17,318 bases of DNA. It comes from a virus. The DNA lies in the UHGV virus genome UHGV-0074612; one strand, written 5' to 3'. The notes below the pieces were generated by a model. The model was not told the DNA's origin and did not search any database. It saw only the letters and a program-made list of their open reading frames with translations. The position numbers were made by a program, and so were the translations under genes. The stretch's first letter is position 1, and each line of letters opens with the position of its first letter. Positions 3,682 to 17,268 of this stretch are shown piece after piece.

Positions 3682-4352
3682 TGCTCCCCAAATACAAAAC
3701 CAATTTCAGCCAGTGCCTCGTCCATTTTTTCGATGAACTCTGGCACCATTTCGTCAAAACCAGCCATGTATTTTTCATCCCGCTCGACCACGACATAATG
3801 CAGGCCTTCACGCTTCATACGTGGGTCATAGTTGGCAAAGTACCAGGCATCTTTTCGCGTCGCCCACATGCTGAATTGCACCTGGGCCATGTAAGCTGAT
3901 TTTATTGCCTCGAAACCACCGAGCCGGAATTTCATGAAATCCCGGGAGGTAAACGGGCATTTCAGTTCAAGGCCGTTGCCGTCACTGCATAAACCATCGG
4001 GAGAGCAGGCGGTGCGCATACTTTCGTCGCGATAGATGATCGGGGATTCAATAACATTTACGCCGGAAGTGAACTCAAACAGGGTTCTGGCGTCGTTCTC
4101 GTACTGTTTTCCCCAGGCCAGCGCTTTAGCGTTAACTTCCGGAGCCACACCGGTGCAAACCTCAGCCAGCAGGGTGTGGAAGTAGGACATTTTCATGTCA
4201 GGCCACTTCTTTCCTGATCGGGGCTTTGCTATCACGTTGTGAACTTCTGAAGCGGTGATGACGCCGAGCCGTAATTTGTGCCATGCATCATCCCCCTGTT
4301 CGACAGCTCTCACGTCGATCCCGGTACGCTGCAGGATAATGTCCGGTGTCAT
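3672..4352 (-). CDS. exo: Lambda exonuclease (Red alpha)
   Basis: 226-aa [43 protein letters not shown]..., lambda Exo length and sequence as I recall; start overlaps the bet stop. Confidence 0.97.
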
Positions 4353-5134
4353 GCTGCCACCTTCTGCTCAGTGGCTTTCTGTTTCAGGAATCCGAGAGCT
4401 TTCACTGCTTCGACCTGTGTCAGTTCTGACGATGCGCGAATGTCGCGGCGAAATATCTGGGAACAGAGCGGCAATAAGTCGTCATCCCATGTTTTATCCA
4501 GGGCAATCAGCAGAGTGTTAATCTCCTGCATGGTTTCATCGTTAACCGGAGTGATGTCGCGTTCCGGCTGACGTTCTGCAGTGTATGCGGTATTTTCGAC
4601 AATGCGCTCGGCTTCATCCTTGTCATAGATACCAGCAAATCCGAAGGCCAGACGGGCACACTGAATCATGGCTTTATGACGTAACATCCGTTTGGGATGC
4701 GACTGCCACGGCCCCGTGATTTCTCTGCCTTCGCGGGTTTTGAATGGTTCGCGGCGGCATTCATCCATCCACTCGGTAACGCAGATCGGATGATTACGGT
4801 CCTTGCGGTAAATCCGGCATGTGCAGGATTCATTGTCCTGCTCAAAGTCCATGCCATCAAACTGCTGGTTTTCATTGATGATACGGGACCAGCCATCAAC
4901 GCCCACCACCGGAACGATGCCGTTCTGCTTGTCAGGGAAGGCGTAAATTTCTTTCGTCCACGGATTAAGGCCGTACTGGTTGGCGACGATCAACAATGCG
5001 ATGAACTGCGCATCGCTGGCATCGCCTTTAAATGCCGTCTGGCGAAGAGTGGTGATCAGTTCCTGTGGGTCGACAGAATCCATGCCGACACGTTCAGCCA
5101 GCTTCCCAGCCAGCGTTGCGAGTGCTGTACTCAT
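4349..5134 (-). CDS. bet: Single-strand annealing protein Bet (Red beta)
   Basis: 261-aa [53 protein letters not shown]..., lambda Bet length and sequence as I recall. Confidence 0.97.
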
Positions 5135-7549: not shown

Positions 7550-7933
7550 ATGCGTGATATTCAGATGGTTCTTGAGCGTTGGGGAGCGTGGGCGGCTAAT
7601 AATCATGAAGATGTGACCTGGTCGTCCATTGCCGCCGGTTTTAAGGGATTAATTCCTTCAAAAGTAAAATCTCGCCCGCAATGTTGTGACGATGACGCGA
7701 TGATCATTTGCGGGTGCATGGCCCGCCTGAAAAAGAACAACAGCGATTTGCACGATTTATTAGTAGATTATTATATAGTCGGTATGACATTCATGTCACT
7801 GGCAGGTAAGCATTGCTGCTCTGATGGTTATATCGGGAAAAGGTTACAAAAGGCTGAGGGCATAATTGAAGGGATGTTAATGGCATTAGATATCCGGTTA
7901 GAGATGGATATCGTTGTTAATAACTCTAATTAA
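7550..7933 (+). CDS. Late-gene antiterminator Q (QuuD-like)
   Basis: Track ORF 7535..7933; ATG at 7550 after GGAGTAAG gives [24 protein letters not shown]... with a Cys-rich zinc-binding region, resembling the DLP12 QuuD antiterminator. Confidence 0.88.
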
Positions 7934-7955
7934 TACGCCAATTATTTACTAAAAG

Positions 7956-7984
7956 TTATTAAAAATGGGGCGTTGAAACGCCCC
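7956..7984 (-). terminator. Intrinsic terminator for the porin transcript (minus strand)
   Basis: GC-rich 7-bp stem GGGGCGT/ACGCCCC (7967-7973/7978-7984) with tetraloop, followed on the minus strand by ATTTTTAATAAC. Confidence 0.6.
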
Positions 7985-8121
7985 CAAAAATAAAGGGTAA
8001 TATATAACAGAAGGTTTATATAGTTAGAAGCAAGGTTGTGCTTCTAAAGGAAGTGGCTTGAGGGAGCCACTTATATGTTGGGGAGGCAAAGCCTCCCACA
8101 ACATATCTTTTAGTAATCAAA
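7956..8121 (-). ncRNA. Highly structured porin 3' region; candidate IpeX-like small RNA
   Basis: Four consecutive stem-loops between the porin stop (8122) and the terminator: 8077-8104, 8051-8072, 8024-8047, 7967-7984. I recall that the DLP12 sRNA IpeX maps just downstream of nmpC; exact boundaries not determinable here. Confidence 0.3.
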
Positions 8122-9204
8122 TTAGAACTGGTAAACCATACCTACAGCAACGATATCATCGGTAGCAACGCCAGATGCTTTCGTGAAATCGCTCTTATCA
8201 ATCAGGTTGATTTTGTAGTCAACAAAAGTGGACATATTTTTGTTGAAGTAATAGGTTGCACCTACATCAACATATTCAACCAGGTCCTGATCACCCCAAA
8301 CACCCAAGTCTTTTCCTTTAGAATGCAGGTAAGCAACGGATGGACGCAGGCCGAAGTCGAACTGATATTGTGCAACAGCTTCGAAGTTTTGTGCTTTGTT
8401 GGCAATATGGTTATTACCAAAAACAGTCATGTTCTGGGTTTCAGAATAGGTGGTGGCCAGATAGATGTTGTTCGCATCATATTTCAGACCAGCTGCCCAT
8501 ACTTCAGCATTTTGACCAGAAGCATTCAGACCGTTGTTACCGTAGATAACCTGATTATTAGTGCGATCAGATTTAGCATAGGTTGCACCCACGCCGAATC
8601 CTTCATACTCATAAGTAGTTGAGAAACCGAAACCATCGCCATTAGCTTCAGTTACTTCATTTCGGTCATTTTTGCCCTGATACTGAGCTGCAAAGTTCAG
8701 GCCATCAACCAGACCAAAGAAGTCGTTGTTACGATAAGTTGCAACACCTGTGGTGCGACCAGTCATGAATACATCTGTTTGGGTCCAGGTATCGCCACCG
8801 AATTCTGGCAGAACGTCGGTCCATGCACCGATGTCGTATGCTACACCGTAGTTACGGCCGTAATCGATGGAGCCGTAGTCACCGAATTTCAGGCCAGCGA
8901 AGGCAAGACGGGTTTTATCTTTGGAGGAACCTTGAGATTCAGCGCGGTTGCCTTTGAATTCATATTCCCACTGACCGAAACCAGTCAGTTGATCGTTGAT
9001 TTGGGTTTCACCTTTGAAGCCAAGACGGGCATAAGTAGTATCACCATCATCTGCATCATTAGAGGAGAAGTAGTGCTTAGCATTAACTTTCCCGTACAGA
9101 TCCAGCTTGTTACTGTCTTTATTATAAATTTCAGCTGCCTGAGCAGACATCGCCATCAGTACTGATGCAGCTACAGCAGAAATTGCCACTGTTAATTTTT
9201 TCAT
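8122..9204 (-). CDS. nmpC: OmpC/OmpF-family general porin, prophage-encoded (NmpC/Lc-like)
   Basis: 360-aa ORF with signal peptide [23 protein letters not shown] then AEIYNKD..., C-terminal VGMVYQF ending in Phe; located between Q and the holin on the opposite strand, as nmpC is in DLP12. Confidence 0.93.
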
Positions 9205-9632
9205 CGTGAGCCCTTTTTTTTGAACTATTATTAAAAAATGATGTCACTGCGCGATAAATATTCATCTAATCAATGTGAATATTTCAAGATGTAAGTTTTG
9301 GTTTCTCGTTTGATTTGTGAAGTAGATCTCTATTTTTATCTGAACTTTTTTCTATCGAATCCTATTCATGGCTCTTGACTGAATAAAAATAAATCTATTA
9401 GCCAATTTATATTAATGGCTGTTATTTATAAGTGCTCTATAATTTGAAGGTTCAATTTAAATTGACTAAAAATAACGCTGGAAATTATTTGTTGGTTATT
9501 TGTTGAGATTTGCTTATGTATTTGTAGTGGTGTTTTCAATACTCGGTAGCATTCTCGCAAATATCATTTAGTGGTTTACGTACGTAAAAAATTGGTTATG
9601 CTGTTAAGAGTGGTTACTTCGTCACACAGCTT

Positions 9633-9666
9633 AAACCCGCCGTCGAGCGGGTTTTTCCATTTTTTG
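9633..9666 (+). terminator. Rho-independent terminator inside the porin-holin intergenic region (tR'-like)
   Basis: 8-bp stem AAACCCGC/GCGGGTTT (9633-9640/9647-9654), 6-nt loop, then TTCCATTTTTTG. No plus-strand gene ends upstream of it. Confidence 0.7.
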
Positions 9667-9777
9667 AGTCTCGATATTAGCTGATAACCCAATACCTGAG
9701 TTATTCACTGACTCCGAGTCTGTTACGTTTCGTAGTATTCCCTCAATTTACACCCGCTTTGTCTGCGAGGTGGGGTT

Positions 9778-9993
9778 ATGAAATCCATGGATAAGTTAAC
9801 AACGGGTGTCGCCTATGGCACCTCAGCAGGTAGTGCCGGGTACTGGTTTTTACAGCTGCTCGATAAAGTCACGCCCTCACAGTGGGCAGCAATAGGTGTG
9901 CTGGGTAGCCTGGTATTTGGCCTGCTGACGTACCTGACAAACCTTTATTTCAAGATTAAAGAAGATAAGCGCAAGGCTGCGAGAGGTGAATAA
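9778..9993 (+). CDS. Phage-21-type pinholin (S21/EssD-like) with dual start motif
   Basis: 71-aa [29 protein letters not shown]...; Met1/Met4 dual start, two TMDs, charged C-terminus; GAGGTGG upstream. Confidence 0.92.
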
Positions 9994-10490
9994 TGCCTCC
10001 ATCATTACGAAAAGCCGTTGCTGCTGCTATTGGTGGCGGAGCAATTGCTATAGCATCAGTGTTAATCACTGGCCCAAGTGGTAACGATGGTCTGGAAGGT
10101 GTCAGCTACATACCATACAAAGATATTGTTGGTGTATGGACTGTATGTCACGGGCATACAGGAAAAGACATCATGCTCGGTAAAACGTATACCAAAGCAG
10201 AATGCAAAGCCCTCCTGAATAAAGACCTTGCCACGGTCGCCAGACAAATTAACCCGTACATAAAAGTTGATATACCGGAAACAACGCGCGGCGCTCTTTA
10301 CTCGTTCGTTTACAACGTGGGCGCTGGCAATTTCAGAACATCGACACTTCTTCGCAAAATAAACCAGGGCGATATCAAAGGCGCATGTGATCAGCTACGT
10401 CGCTGGACATATGCTGGCGGTAAGCAATGGAAAGGTCTCATGACTCGTCGTGAGATTGAGCGTGAAATCTGTTTGTGGGGTCAGCAATGA
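9993..10490 (+). CDS. SAR endolysin (phage-21 R / RrrD-like lysozyme)
   Basis: 165-aa ORF with N-terminal Gly/Ala-rich signal-anchor-release segment [20 protein letters not shown] followed by a lysozyme domain; start overlaps the holin stop. Confidence 0.92.
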
Positions 10491-10945
10491 ACAGAGTAAC
10501 CGCGATTATCTCCGCTCTGGTTATCTGCATCATCGTCTGCCTGTCATGGGCTGTTAATCATTACCGTGATAACGCCATTACCTACAAAGCCCAGCGCGAC
10601 AAAAATGCCAGAGAACTGGAGAAGGCGAACGCCACCATCGCTGACATGCGGAAGCGTCAACGTGATGTAGCAGAACTCGACGCAAGATACACAAAGGAGC
10701 TTGCTGATGCTAACGCGACTATCGAAAGTCTCCGTGCTGATGTTTCTGCTGGGCGTAAGCGCCTGCAAGTCGCCGCCACCTGTGCAAAGTCAACGACCGG
10801 AGCCAGCGGCATGGGCGATGGAGAAAGCCCAGGACTTACAGCAGATGCTGAACTCAATTATTACCGTCTCCGAAGTGGAATCGACAAGATAACCGCGCAG
10901 GTTAACTACCTGCAGGAATACATCAGGACGCAATGCCTGAAATAA
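10487..10945 (+). CDS. Spanin inner-membrane subunit Rz
   Basis: ATG at 10487 (ATGA overlap with endolysin stop) gives [21 protein letters not shown]..., an N-terminal TMD followed by a periplasmic coiled-coil-like region. Confidence 0.88.
10701..10892 (+). CDS. Spanin outer-membrane lipoprotein Rz1, embedded in Rz in the +1 frame
   Basis: 63-aa ORF wholly inside Rz; signal peptide with lipobox VSAC followed by a proline-rich segment [13 protein letters not shown]. Confidence 0.8.
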
Positions 10946-13587: not shown

Positions 13588-13704
13588 ATGAAGGTTAATA
13601 AAAAGAAACTTGCCGAAATTTTCAACGTGGATCCGCGAACGATTGAACGCTGGCAGTCTCAGGGACTCCCTTGCGTCTCCGGAGGTGGCAGCGGGCCATC
13701 ATGA
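13588..13704 (+). pseudogene. Terminase small subunit (Nu1/gp1-like), N-terminal 38-codon stub
   Basis: [38 protein letters not shown] then stop; resembles the Nu1 N-terminal DNA-binding segment (lambda MEVNKKQLADIFGASIRTIQNWQEQGMPVLRGGG). The frame ends where terminase A homology begins. Confidence 0.75.
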
Positions 13705-14570
13705 ATGCGATGGGCAGTGACTACATCCGCGAGGTGAATGTGGTGAAGTCTGCCCGTGTTGGTTATTCCAAAATGCTGCTGGGTGTTTATGCCTACTTCA
13801 TAGAGCATAAGCAGCGCAACACCCTTATCTGGTTGCCGACGGATGGTGATGCCGAGAACTTTATGAAAACCCACGTTGAGCCGACTATTCGTGATATTCC
13901 GTCGCTGCTGGCGCTGGCCCCGTGGTATGGCAAAAAGCACCGGGATAACACGCTCACCATGAAGCGTTTCACTAATGGGCGTGGCTTCTGGTGCCTGGGC
14001 GGTAAAGCGGCAAAAAACTACCGTGAAAAGTCGGTGGATGTGGCGGGTTATGATGAACTTGCTGCTTTTGATGATGATATTGAACAGGAAGGCTCTCCGA
14101 CGTTCCTGGGTGACAAGCGTATTGAAGGCTCGGTCTGGCCAAAGTCCATCCGTGGCTCCACGCCCAAAGTGAGAGGCACCTGCCAGATTGAGCGTGCAGC
14201 CAGTGAATCCCCGCATTTTATGCGTTTTCATGTTGCCTGCCCGCACTGCGGGGAGGAGCAGTATCTTAAATTTGGCGACAAAGAGACGCCGTTTGGCCTC
14301 AAATGGACGCCGGATGACCCCTCCAGCGTGTTTTATCTCTGCGAGCATAATGCCTGCGTCATCCGCCAGCAGGAGCTGGACTTTACTGATGCCCGTTATA
14401 TCTGCGAAAAGACCGGGATCTGGACCCGTGATGGCATTCTCTGGTTTTCGTCATCCGGTGAAGAGATTGAGCCGCCGGACAGTGTGACCTTTCACATCTG
14501 GACGGCGTACAGCCCGTTCACCACCTGGGTGCAGATTGTCAAAGACTGGATGAAGACGAAAGGGGATACC
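13689..14570 (+). pseudogene. Terminase large subunit A, internal fragment (about residues 58-350 of lambda gpA)
   Basis: Track ORF 13671..14630; [50 protein letters not shown]... through ...[14 protein letters not shown] is lambda gpA as I recall. It lacks the gpA N-terminus and C-terminal half; the frame then runs into J-derived sequence out of frame. Confidence 0.85.
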
Positions 14571-14571
14571 C

Positions 14572-15883
14572 GAACACGGCACTGGTCGGCGTGCAGGTGG
14601 ACTCGGAGCAGTTCGGCAGCCAGCAGGTGAGCCGTAATTATCATCTGCGCGGGCGCATTCTGCAGGTGCCGTCGAACTATAACCCGCAGACGCGGCAATA
14701 CAGCGGTATCTGGGATGGAACGTTTAAGCCAGCATACAGCAACAACATGGCCTGGTGTCTGTGGGATATGCTGACCCATCCGCGCTACGGCATGGGGAAA
14801 CGTCTTGGTGCAGCAGATGTGGATAAATGGACGCTGTATGTCATCGGCCAGTACTGCGACCAGTTGGTACCGAATGGTTTTGGCGGCACGGAGCCGCGCA
14901 TCACCTGTAATGCCTGGCTGACCACACAGCGTAAGGCGTGGGATGTGCTCAGTGATTTCTGCTCGGCGATGCGCTGTATGCCGGTATGGAACGGGCAGAC
15001 GCTGACGTTCGTGCAGGACCGACCATCAGATAAGGTGTGGACCTATAACCGCAGTAATGTGGTGATGCCGGATGATGGCGCGCCGTTCCGCTACAGCTTC
15101 AGCGCCCTGAAGGACCGCCATAATGCCGTTGAGGTGAACTGGATTGACCCGAACAACGGCTGGGAGACGGCGACAGAGCTTGTTGAAGATACGCAGGCCA
15201 TTGCCCGTTACGGTCGTAATGTCACGAAGATGGATGCCTTTGGCTGTACCAGCCGGGGGCAGGCACACCGCGCCGGGCTGTGGCTGATTAAAACGGAACT
15301 GCTGGAGACGCAGACCGTGGATTTCAGCGTGGGTGCTGAAGGGCTTCGCCATGTACCGGGCGATGTCATTGAAATCTGCGATGATGACTATGCCGGTATC
15401 AGCACCGGTGGTCGCGTGCTGGCGGTGAACAGCCAGACCCGGACGCTGACGCTCGACCGTGAAATCACGCTGCCATCTTCCGGCACCACGCTGATAAGCC
15501 TGGTTGACGGGCAGGGGAGTCCGGTCAGCGTGGAGGTTCAGTCCGTCACCGACGGACTTAAGGTGAAAGTGAACCGGGTTCCTGACGGCGTTGCAGAATA
15601 CAGTGTGTGGGGGCTGAAGTTGCCGACGTTGCGTCAGCGCCTGTTCCGCTGTGTGAGTATCCGTGAGAACGATGACGGCACGTATGCCATCACTGCCGTG
15701 CAGCATGTACCGGAAAAAGAAGCCATCGTGGATAACGGGGCGCACTTTGACGGCGACCAGAGCGGCACGGTGAATGATGTCACGCCGCCAGCGGTGCAGC
15801 ACCTGACTGCCGAAGTCACCGCAGACAGCGGGGAATATCAGGTGCTGGCGCGCTGGGACACGCCGAAGGTGGTGAAGGGGGTG
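14572..15883 (+). pseudogene. Tail tip protein J, internal fragment
   Basis: Track ORF 14591..16687 begins at a GTG inside J-like sequence ([28 protein letters not shown]...). J homology runs to ...[12 protein letters not shown]; the J N-terminal third and C-terminal receptor-binding region are absent. Confidence 0.85.
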
Positions 15884-16687
15884 AAGGCACATTACAGAAA
15901 TGGAGGTCTGTTCTACCGTTCCTCAAGAGATGGCTATGGTTTTGAGGAAGACTGGGCAGAAGTTTATACCTCGAAAAATCTTCCACCAGAAAGCTACCCA
16001 GTCGGCGCACCAATCCCGTGGCCATCAGATACCGTTCCGTCTGGTTATGCCCTGATGCAGGGGCAGACTTTTGACAAATCTGCATACCCGAAACTTGCAG
16101 CCGCTTATCCGTCAGGCGTGATCCCTGATATGCGTGGCTGGACGATTAAGGGCAAACCTGCCAGTGGTCGCGCCGTATTGTCTCAGGAACAGGACGGCAT
16201 TAAATCGCACACCCACAGCGCCAGCGCATCCAGTACGGATTTGGGGACGAAAACCACATCGTCGTTTGATTACGGAACCAAATCCACGAATAACACCGGG
16301 GCGCATACCCATAGTATTAGCGGGACCGCAAATAGTGCCGGCGCGCACCAACACAAGAGTTCCGGTGCATTTGGTGGCACGAACACGAGCATTTTCCCTA
16401 ATGGTTATACCGCGATTTCAAATCCAAGCGCGGGGATTATGAGCACAACAAGCGGTAGTGGTCAGACTCGTAATGCAGGGAAGACATCATCAGATGGTGC
16501 TCATACCCACTCGCTGTCCGGCACTGCTGCAAGCGCAGGCGCACATGCACATACTGTCGGTATTGGTGCTCATACGCACTCCGTTGCGATTGGCTCACAT
16601 GGACACACCATCACCGTTAACGCTGCGGGTAACGCGGAAAACACCGTCAAAAACATCGCATTTAACTATATTGTGAGGCTTGCATAA
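15884..16687 (+). pseudogene. Side tail fibre (Stf-like) C-terminal region, fused in frame to the J fragment
   Basis: ...[45 protein letters not shown]... with repeated Gly/His boxes ([30 protein letters not shown]) and C-terminus [11 protein letters not shown], typical of lambda Stf and T4 gp37-type fibre tips. Confidence 0.8.
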
Positions 16688-17268
16688 TGGCATTCAGAAT
16701 GAGTGAACAAGCACGGACCATAAAAATTTATAATCTGCTGGCCGGAACTAATGAATTTATTGGTGAAGGTGACGCATATATTCCGCCTCATACAGGTCTG
16801 CCAGCAAACAGTACCGATATTGCACCACCAGATATTCCGGCAGGCTTCGTGGCTGTTTTCAACAGTGATGAGGCATCGTGGCATCTCGTTGAAGACCATC
16901 GGGGGAAAACGGTTTATGACGTAGCGTCAGGGGACGAGTTATTTATTTCTGAACTCGGTCCGTTACCGGAAAATGTTACCTGGTTATCGCCGGGAGGGGA
17001 ATATCAGAAGTGGAACGGCACAGCCTGGGTGAAGGATACGGAAGCAGAAAAACTGTTCCGGATCCGGGAGGCGGAAGAAACAAAAAACAGCCTGATGCAG
17101 ATAGCCAGTGAGCATATAGCGCCGCTTCAGGATGCTGTGGATCTGGAGATCGCAACGGAGGAAGAAACCTTGTTGCTGGAAGCCTGGAAAAAGTATCGGG
17201 TGTTGCTGAACCGTGTTGATACATCAACTGCACCGGATATTGAATGGCCAGTAGCACCTATAGGGTAA
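16687..17268 (+). CDS. tfa: Tail fibre assembly protein Tfa
   Basis: 193-aa [42 protein letters not shown]...; start overlaps the stop of the upstream tail-fibre ORF; lambda Tfa-like length and sequence as I recall. Confidence 0.9.

Follow-up and report, generated by a model that had tools for sequence, protein, structure and literature searches.

A probable uninterrupted lc/nmpC porin gene of lambdoid-phage type, with an IpeX-type 3′ untranslated region, in a deleted prophage

A porin gene that lies between the antiterminator gene Q and the lysis genes of a lambdoid prophage, on the opposite strand, raises several questions at once: whether the gene is whole and to which lineage it belongs, whether the sequence on either side forms part of the same unit, how it stands to the late transcription of the phage, and whether it is still the cargo of a phage at all. 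We addressed these questions for UHGV virus genome UHGV-0074612, a 17,318-nt stretch of DNA that was analysed over its full length and is called the window here. A preliminary description, made from the letters of the sequence, had presented the locus as an intact OmpC-family porin gene carried as a lysogenic-conversion moron and lying antisense to the late operon. Our analysis indicates with considerable confidence that we are dealing with an undamaged allele of a porin gene of lambdoid phages, called lc in phage PA-2 and nmpC in DLP12. The lc/nmpC-type porin cassette with IpeX is already well described, and the sequence itself holds nothing new; what can be refined is the extent of the conserved unit, its position relative to the late promoter, and the state of the prophage around it.

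The porin gene and its relatives

The coding part of the locus comprises the following features.

8122..9204, minus strand: porin coding sequence, 360 codons and a TAA stop codon at 8122-8124
9204-9136, minus strand: signal peptide, codons 1-23, with cleavage after AQA (residue 23)
9135-8125, minus strand: mature porin, the last residue being Phe

In the open reading frame listing of the window, 8122..9204 on the minus strand is a single ATG-initiated frame of 360 amino acids without an internal stop. Residues 29-360 of its product cover the whole Pfam model Porin_1 (PF00267; model positions 1-337 of 337, E = 3.6e-152). The protein scores 515 bits against the NCBIfam subfamily “porin OmpC”, which has a cut-off of 484, and falls under the cut-offs of the PhoE (505 vs 599) and OmpF (480 vs 583) equivalogs. 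The mature part (residues 24-360) aligns from its first to its last residue with the solved chains of OmpC, OmpK36, PhoE and OmpF. Because these chains begin at query residue 24, cleavage is placed after residue 23 (...SAQA), which leaves a mature N terminus of AEIYNKD, and the same 23-residue signal peptide is annotated in the PA-2 record J02580. The loop-3 motif PEFGGD, within residues 131-140, is aligned and kept in OmpK37 and OmpC, and the C terminus reads ...AVGMVYQF, with a terminal Phe conserved in the same two proteins. The frame, the Porin_1 match and the alignment to solved chains thus bear out what had been proposed about the coordinates, the OmpC family, the signal peptide and the terminal Phe. 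By homology to the solved porins, the product would adopt the fold of a trimeric 16-stranded beta-barrel that acts as a general-diffusion pore; AlphaFold2, run on the single sequence, gave a model too poor to use (mean pLDDT 30).

The likeness to the chromosomal general porins OmpC, OmpF, PhoE, OmpN and OmpK37 extends over the full length, most solved chains being matched at E values between about 1e-115 and 1e-135, and includes the shared mature start AEIYNKD, the PEFGGD motif and the C-terminal YQF. The window porin nevertheless differs from them in belonging to a separate, phage-borne NmpC/Lc lineage, and it is shorter than OmpK37 and OmpC, its best-matching solved chains, at about residues 180-186. 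A further relative, 81.7% identical and likewise provided with a signal peptide, is the nmpC of the P1-like phage P7; it too is cargo of a temperate phage, although it sits in an unrelated phage backbone with odaA and ssb as neighbours.

For comparison with K-12, the IS5 element was removed in silico from the nmpC reference before alignment. The window porin is 90.4% identical in amino acids to PA-2 Lc and 90.4% identical to the IS5-free NmpC, in agreement with the lineage suggested earlier. Alignment of the gene with lc and the IS5-free nmpC revealed no frameshift and no premature stop: there are two gaps, of 3 and 2 codons (9 and 6 nt), both in frame, and the remaining differences are substitutions. 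The K-12 gene is indeed disrupted, since IS5B, flanked by a duplicated CTAA target, interrupts it after codon 346, whereas the window copy is whole, as the preliminary description had supposed. In DLP12 (qsr′) the order quuD, nmpC::IS5 on the opposite strand, essD, rrrD and rzpD is the same as in the window. PA-2 Lc (“protein 2” of J02580) has 365 amino acids vs 360 in the window; the signal peptide and the N-terminal third are identical in the two proteins, the upstream region and the 3′ untranslated region (UTR) are homologous with few substitutions, and the same lysis genes follow in the same relative orientation. PA-2 differs further by a 16-bp insert in its S-proximal spacer.

The differences from Lc and NmpC are unevenly distributed. 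The 35 differing alignment positions, the two in-frame gaps among them, cluster at residues ~181-232, 268-272 and 299-356. At the DNA level, identity to K-12 is 98% in the first 60-nt block and 100% in the next five, that is, over the first 360 nt, and beyond these it drops to 65-94% by block; the C-terminal two-thirds of the gene can be read as a recombinational mosaic. Solved porins show insertions or deletions relative to the query at ~180-186 and 219-226, within the variable clusters, and the positions of these clusters are consistent with surface loops. Given the 35 differing positions, the pore and receptor properties of the window allele may diverge from those of Lc and NmpC.

The closest phage relatives are ev099 and ev243, two isolated lambda-like coliphages whose porin, annotated as OmpD/OmpC, is 100% identical to that of the window. 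The 2.6-kb region from Q through the porin gene to S is 98.9% identical to ev243 and 97.2% to ev099. The RefSeq gene of ev243 starts at an internal Met and accordingly measures 1035 nt instead of 1083.

The porin transcript and the IpeX region

Two noncoding features on the same strand flank the coding sequence.

9205..9403, minus strand: 5′ UTR and promoter region of the porin gene, corresponding by homology to K-12 PnmpC (−199 to −1)
7958..8121, minus strand: 3′ UTR of the porin gene, counterpart by homology of the IpeX region in DLP12 and PA-2 (alignment, fold and terminator)

Upstream of the gene, a Shine-Dalgarno sequence AAGGG is present at 9215-9211. Positions 9313-9333 hold a CRP-like site, TGTGA-N6-TCTCT, unchanged from the one annotated at 1363-1383 of J02580. 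The alignment of the region between the porin gene and S (window 9196-9800) has a mean column identity of 97% to DLP12 and PA-2, and the upstream region and the 3′ UTR are 96-97% identical to these two. The promoter region of the window is equivalent to PnmpC by homology and is regarded here as a putative promoter. A second, distal “CRP site” of J02580 (1067-1087, window 9609-9629) was considered as a regulator of the porin; it falls in the pR′-like leader described below and is kept in Stx phages that have no porin, so that it probably does not serve this purpose.

Whether such a promoter would be used here depends on the weighing of two bodies of evidence. The main rival reading is that the porin gene is intact but largely silent in this host, a remnant that has not yet decayed, whose AT-rich upstream region is repressed by OmpR, IHF, MprA and possibly H-NS and which adds nothing to the envelope in ordinary growth. 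The upstream region does have a GC content of 27-35%, the flanking prophage is decaying, and K-12 PnmpC, reported to be activated by Crp, is also reported to be repressed by OmpR, IHF and MprA. The nmpC gene of E. coli BE is, moreover, said to be “quiescent” in the title of a paper by Prilipov (1998), as far as a title can tell, and that of K-12 is reportedly pH-modulated, in the words of a title by Coll (1994). Against silence, deletion has removed flanking phage genes but left the ORF, the promoter and the 3′ UTR whole, and an unaltered copy of the protein is encoded by three sequenced genomes and by two phages. In K-12, PnmpC is an active sigma-70 promoter according to 5′ RACE and promoter deletion, and it gave the sole detectable read-through transcript into IS5 in glycerol minimal medium (PMC11677980); a wild STEC strain has also been found to contain NmpC protein (PMC9731836). 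We consider a silent gene rather unlikely, and the window porin is expected to be expressed.

Downstream of the stop codon, the 164-nt 3′ UTR (8121 to 7958) shows single-base differences only with respect to DLP12 and PA-2, and the region 7925-8110 is 96.8% identical to PA-2. The RNA is predicted to fold into several hairpins with an energy of −61.5 kcal/mol (z = −8.8 vs shuffles). An intrinsic terminator closes the UTR, with a stem at 7984-7967 and then a T run, 140-165 nt beyond the stop codon. An IpeX-like 3′ UTR was found only in 36 phage records, all of which also have the Q-porin arrangement. Judged by its homology, the 3′ UTR of the window porin is the likely counterpart of the IpeX regulatory RNA. 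Rfam scans at gathering and E-value thresholds returned no IpeX match, Rfam being without an IpeX model; a sub-threshold Trp_leader match (E = 0.36) fell on the pR′-like leader and terminator and is regarded as spurious. We also considered “ORF1” of J02580, which runs antisense over the 3′ end of lc, as a conserved gene and rejected it: owing to a 1-nt difference, the window frame, as read by eye, stops after 12 codons.

Castillo-Keller et al. reportedly found in 2006 that the effect on OmpC depends on the 3′ UTR of lc and not on the Lc protein. In the literature, IpeX is made as part of the porin transcript and inhibits OmpC; in DLP12 and PA-2 it is IpeX, rather than the porin protein, that lowers OmpC/OmpF post-transcriptionally. 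An effect of this kind on OmpC/OmpF would be expected in the host of the window as well. One hypothesis is that the selected function of the cassette resides mainly in the IpeX RNA, acting in superinfection exclusion or envelope remodelling, with the porin as a replacement pore that maintains permeability. Single-base differences over 164 nt, vs 65-90% DNA identity in the C-terminal half of the ORF, are what such a hypothesis would lead one to expect, and a fold far better than that of shuffled sequences, the restriction of the UTR to phage records with the Q-porin arrangement and the crediting of OmpC inhibition to IpeX all point the same way. On the other hand, the ORF is likewise intact and its pore motifs are conserved, and nearness to Q and recent recombination could account in part for how well the UTR is conserved. 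We regard the primacy of the RNA as a tentative possibility, with a likelihood somewhat below even.

Under the preferred reading of the locus as an intact lc/nmpC allele, transcription would start at the sigma-70 promoter PnmpC, within ~200 bp upstream of the ATG, and the transcript would consist of the 360-codon ORF, the structured 3′ UTR of ~160 nt and the intrinsic terminator. The porin would be exported through its 23-residue signal peptide (Sec) and would form the trimeric 16-stranded general-diffusion pore, giving the cell one more route of permeation and a structure new to its surface. IpeX would lower OmpC/OmpF post-transcriptionally and so shift porin composition, and the lowering of OmpC would leave less of the OmpC receptor that is used by phages such as PA-2. 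An intact nmpC/lc cassette could in this way shift antibiotic permeability as well as sensitivity to porin-dependent phages and colicins.

Position of the cassette relative to Q and the late promoter

On the plus strand, the porin gene is bordered by the following features.

7550..7933, plus strand: antiterminator Q of the QuuD type, Q21/Q933W family (Pfam PF06530, 1.1e-53)
9575..9666, plus strand: pR′-like late-promoter homologue with leader and terminator, by homology to VT2-Sakai/Stx phages
9778..10945, plus strand: lysis cassette (PHROGs holin, endolysin and Rz-like spanin; Pfam Phage_holin_2_1 and Phage_lysozyme)
9778-9993, plus strand: P21-type holin S
9993-10490, plus strand: endolysin R
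10475-10945, plus strand: Rz spanin ORF

These coordinates confirm that the porin gene lies between Q and the lysis genes on the opposite strand, an arrangement of Q, opposite-strand porin and S/R/Rz that also occurs in DLP12, ev243, 434B and 4A7. The window Q is 98% identical to K-12 QuuD and 78% to the Q of VT2-Sakai, and homology among three related Q genes ends after ...RLEMD, at ~7909, where we set the left edge of the porin cassette; its limits come from comparison with VT2-Sakai and phage 1H12. VT2-Sakai has no cassette at this place, its Q homologue and pR′ overlapping directly. The corresponding sequence in the window is found on the far side of the porin: 9574-9656 (83 nt) is 77-78% identical to the region directly after Q in VT2-Sakai, where the annotation reads “putative late promoter / Q-utilization / terminator”, and a region like it follows Q in several hundred Stx-phage records. 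The elements kept in the alignment comprise a −35 sequence TTTACG at 9575-9580, a 16-bp spacer, a −10 sequence TATGCT at 9597-9602, the early leader GAGTGGTTAC... and a hairpin at 9633-9654 that is followed by a T run to ~9660.

The porin cassette, leftward in orientation and ~1.66 kb long (~7910-9572), would accordingly sit between the core of Q and Q’s cognate late promoter, the latter marking its right edge without belonging to the module. Because the pR′/tR′ homologue maps to 9575-9660, past the 5′ end of the porin gene, late transcripts are not expected to cross the porin; they probably start after it, 170 nt before S, and the porin is probably not antisense to the late transcript. It would instead face the end of the early-right operon. 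This placement of pR′ agrees with the literature on DLP12, which describes for the lysis cassette a separate regulatory region controlled by Q and RpoE. A cassette between Q and the late promoter, outside the late transcript, would also affect regulation models for inducible relatives.

The preliminary description had placed the porin inside the late unit, with Q-antiterminated late transcripts running antisense through it. This model does have the textbook layout in its favour, in which pR′ is adjacent to Q, together with the opposite-strand placement of the porin between Q and S and weak −10-like motifs just after Q. It is not borne out by the elements described above: the only homologue of a late promoter and terminator lies at 9575-9660, after the porin, and the window Q is 78% identical to a Q that uses this promoter/terminator cassette. 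A consensus promoter scan between Q and the porin found no promoter, although the same scan also missed the site at 9575-9602. We rank this model as the least likely of those considered, and improbable.

We also examined and rejected a specific candidate for a late promoter directly after Q, composed of TTGAAA at 7973-7978, TAATAT at 7998-8003 and a −10-like TATAGT at 8019-8024, with the IpeX hairpins as leader and terminator. The supposed −35 would need a 19-bp spacer and varies among relatives because it lies in the terminator loop. The candidate was also rejected on account of the membership of Q in the Q21/Q933W family, its 78% identity to VT2-Sakai Q and the position of the pR′/tR′ homologue. 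Its premise, that QuuD resembles the Q of phage 82 with a pause at +25, was mistaken, as Pfam assigns it to Q21/Q933W.

A more speculative reading combines two elements, and taken together we hold it to be quite unlikely. The cassette would have parted Q from its late promoter by ~1.66 kb in this Q933W-like lineage, so that, upon induction of a relative that is still intact, antiterminated early transcripts reading beyond Q would run into transcription of the cassette and be antisense to the IpeX/porin mRNA; and the substitutions between NmpC/Lc alleles, which cluster where porins of the family differ in length, at presumed surface loops, would reflect diversifying selection on receptor or antigen specificity. 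If true, the collision would turn the conversion functions off and restore OmpC as the phage turns lytic.

State of the prophage and distribution of the cassette

The surroundings of the cassette were compared with those of a complete relative in strain CE0021a, which occupies the same ybhC-side attachment site. The window begins with int (50-1120), xis, exo and bet (4349-5134), followed by a short fragment that we take, from inspection by eye, to be the 3′ part of gam. This fragment is joined at ~5205 to the terminator before ninB, after which come an N6-adenine methyltransferase gene, ninE, ninX, rusA, ylcG, Q, the porin gene, S, R, Rz, a Rha-like gene, ybcV and ylcI. Relative to CE0021a, the immunity region, N, O, P and ren are missing. 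Further downstream, the ATPase domain of the terminase gpA (13671 to ~14580) is fused in frame to mid-J (TipJ profile positions 220-654), with tail-fibre and assembly genes beyond the fusion; the portal, head and tail genes of CE0021a are also absent from the window, and the small terminase gene appears to be lost as well. A search of 5426 complete E. coli genomes did not turn up the junctions of the window in any of them.

The window prophage is a deleted remnant that is not inducible, lacking the stretch from gam to ren and that from the gpA ATPase domain to mid-J. In this it resembles DLP12, which is likewise defective, and differs from PA-2, a viable phage, and from ev099 and ev243, which are complete phage genomes. 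Because the surrounding prophage is heavily deleted, the cassette behaves as a resident chromosomal gene; it is now a resident gene of a cryptic prophage, like the nmpC of DLP12 without IS5.

These observations bear on the proposal of a lysogenic-conversion moron, of which one part stood. The cassette does have the anatomy of a moron: it possesses its own terminator, a promoter region by homology and an AT-rich flank, and it is absent from related phages, among them VT2-Sakai; in phage 1H12, a different leftward gene, for the lipocalin Blc, is found after Q. Lysogenic conversion, on the other hand, describes the origin of the cassette and not its present state.

Relatives of the gene are common. 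Matches that span 80% or more of the porin gene occur in 2501 of 5426 complete E. coli genomes. Among phage records, 42 encode a relative. Close copies are less frequent: the best match reaches at least 99% identity in 243 of the 4609 matching E. coli records, and full-length DNA identity of 100% is found in three E. coli genomes, followed in rank by matches of 99.8-99.9%. The significance of the window cassette is slight beyond its correct annotation, which matters for a gene held by roughly one in two complete E. coli genomes.

Such annotation concerns both the extent and the name of the feature. The conserved module extends past the ORF, and the 3′ UTR had been overlooked in the preliminary description. 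The top E. coli matches are annotated “ompC: porin OmpC”, with none flagged as a pseudogene; the proper name is phage NmpC/Lc porin, and the RefSeq label “ompC” invites confusion with the chromosomal ompC.

The putative late-promoter region and exchange of porin cargo

On the side of the porin gene away from the antiterminator gene Q, the window carries a putative late-promoter region related to that of Shiga toxin (Stx) phages:
9575-9666 (+), pR'-like promoter with leader and terminator, homologous to the post-Q cassette of Stx phages of the 933W/VT2-Sakai type

The leader is common to the window and the Stx phages over approximately its first 50 nt only; the 3' part, which in Stx phages makes up the small RNA StxS, is absent from the window. 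The record of the PA-2 porin gene lc (J02580) includes a distal "CRP binding site" (1067-1087), which corresponds to window 9609-9629 and lies inside the pR'-like leader. Porin-less Stx phages keep this site too, so it more likely belongs to the late-promoter/Q-loading region than regulates the porin.

In phage 1H12 (L007 2516-3574), Q is 84% identical and is followed directly on its 3' side by promoter-like sequence and a strong terminator; after these, at the place of the window's porin, lies another leftward cargo gene, encoding the lipocalin Blc. The junction distal to Q, after ...RLEMD, looks like a recurrent point of cargo insertion. The P1-like phage P7 (L006 2501-3616) possesses an nmpC that is 82% identical, flanked by odaA and ssb and fairly near P7's own lysis genes; porin cargo has moved between temperate-phage backbones that are unrelated to each other. 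In the laboratory phage 434 isolate 434B (L002 2041-5632), a DLP12-type Q and nmpC::IS5 segment is present, annotated as "region of 434 nonhomology" and apparently acquired from K-12 through recombination. 434B shows that the entire Q-porin-pR' block can be exchanged as one unit with the phage still viable.

Deletions in the prophage remnant

Two regions of the window mark the loss of phage genes:
5135-5260, presumed gam remnant and ninB-terminator junction, beside bet
13671-16687, gpA-J fusion region

The fragment adjoining bet, recognised by eye, is presumably a short 3' piece of gam. It abuts the hairpin terminator preceding ninB without intervening DNA, and about 7.5 kb of the complete relatives, the stretch from gam to ren with N, cI, cro, cII, O and P in it, is absent from the window. 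This junction was found in no complete E. coli genome of the collection of 5426.

In the fusion region, only the N-terminal ATPase domain of the terminase large subunit gpA is retained, ending at about 14580 and fused to the middle of the tail-tip protein J (TipJ profile positions 220-654), after which come tail-collar and fibre repeats. Deletion has removed the portal, head and tail genes. The gene for the small terminase seems to be lost as well, since the best genome matches are about 590 bp longer in span than the window.

Annotation of the porin gene and other features

The identical porin of phage ev243 starts at an internal Met in RefSeq, giving 1035 nt versus 1083 (L001 3723-4866; window 9131-9265). 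This start cuts off most of the signal peptide, and RefSeq has added a spurious 44-aa "hypothetical protein" over the true start. In E. coli genomes the gene is labelled "ompC" by RefSeq, a name that makes it easy to mistake for the chromosomal ompC.

The "ORF1" frame of J02580, antisense across the lc 3' end, was read by eye in the window (8074-8112, +), where it ends after 12 codons because the sequence differs by 1 nt from that of K-12 and PA-2; ORF1 therefore does not count as a conserved gene.

The Rfam model IS009 has a full-length match at 17030-17228 (+), whose 221 bits lie well above the gathering score of 117. The match falls within the tail-fibre assembly gene (16687-17268), and the model seems to describe a conserved prophage coding stretch.
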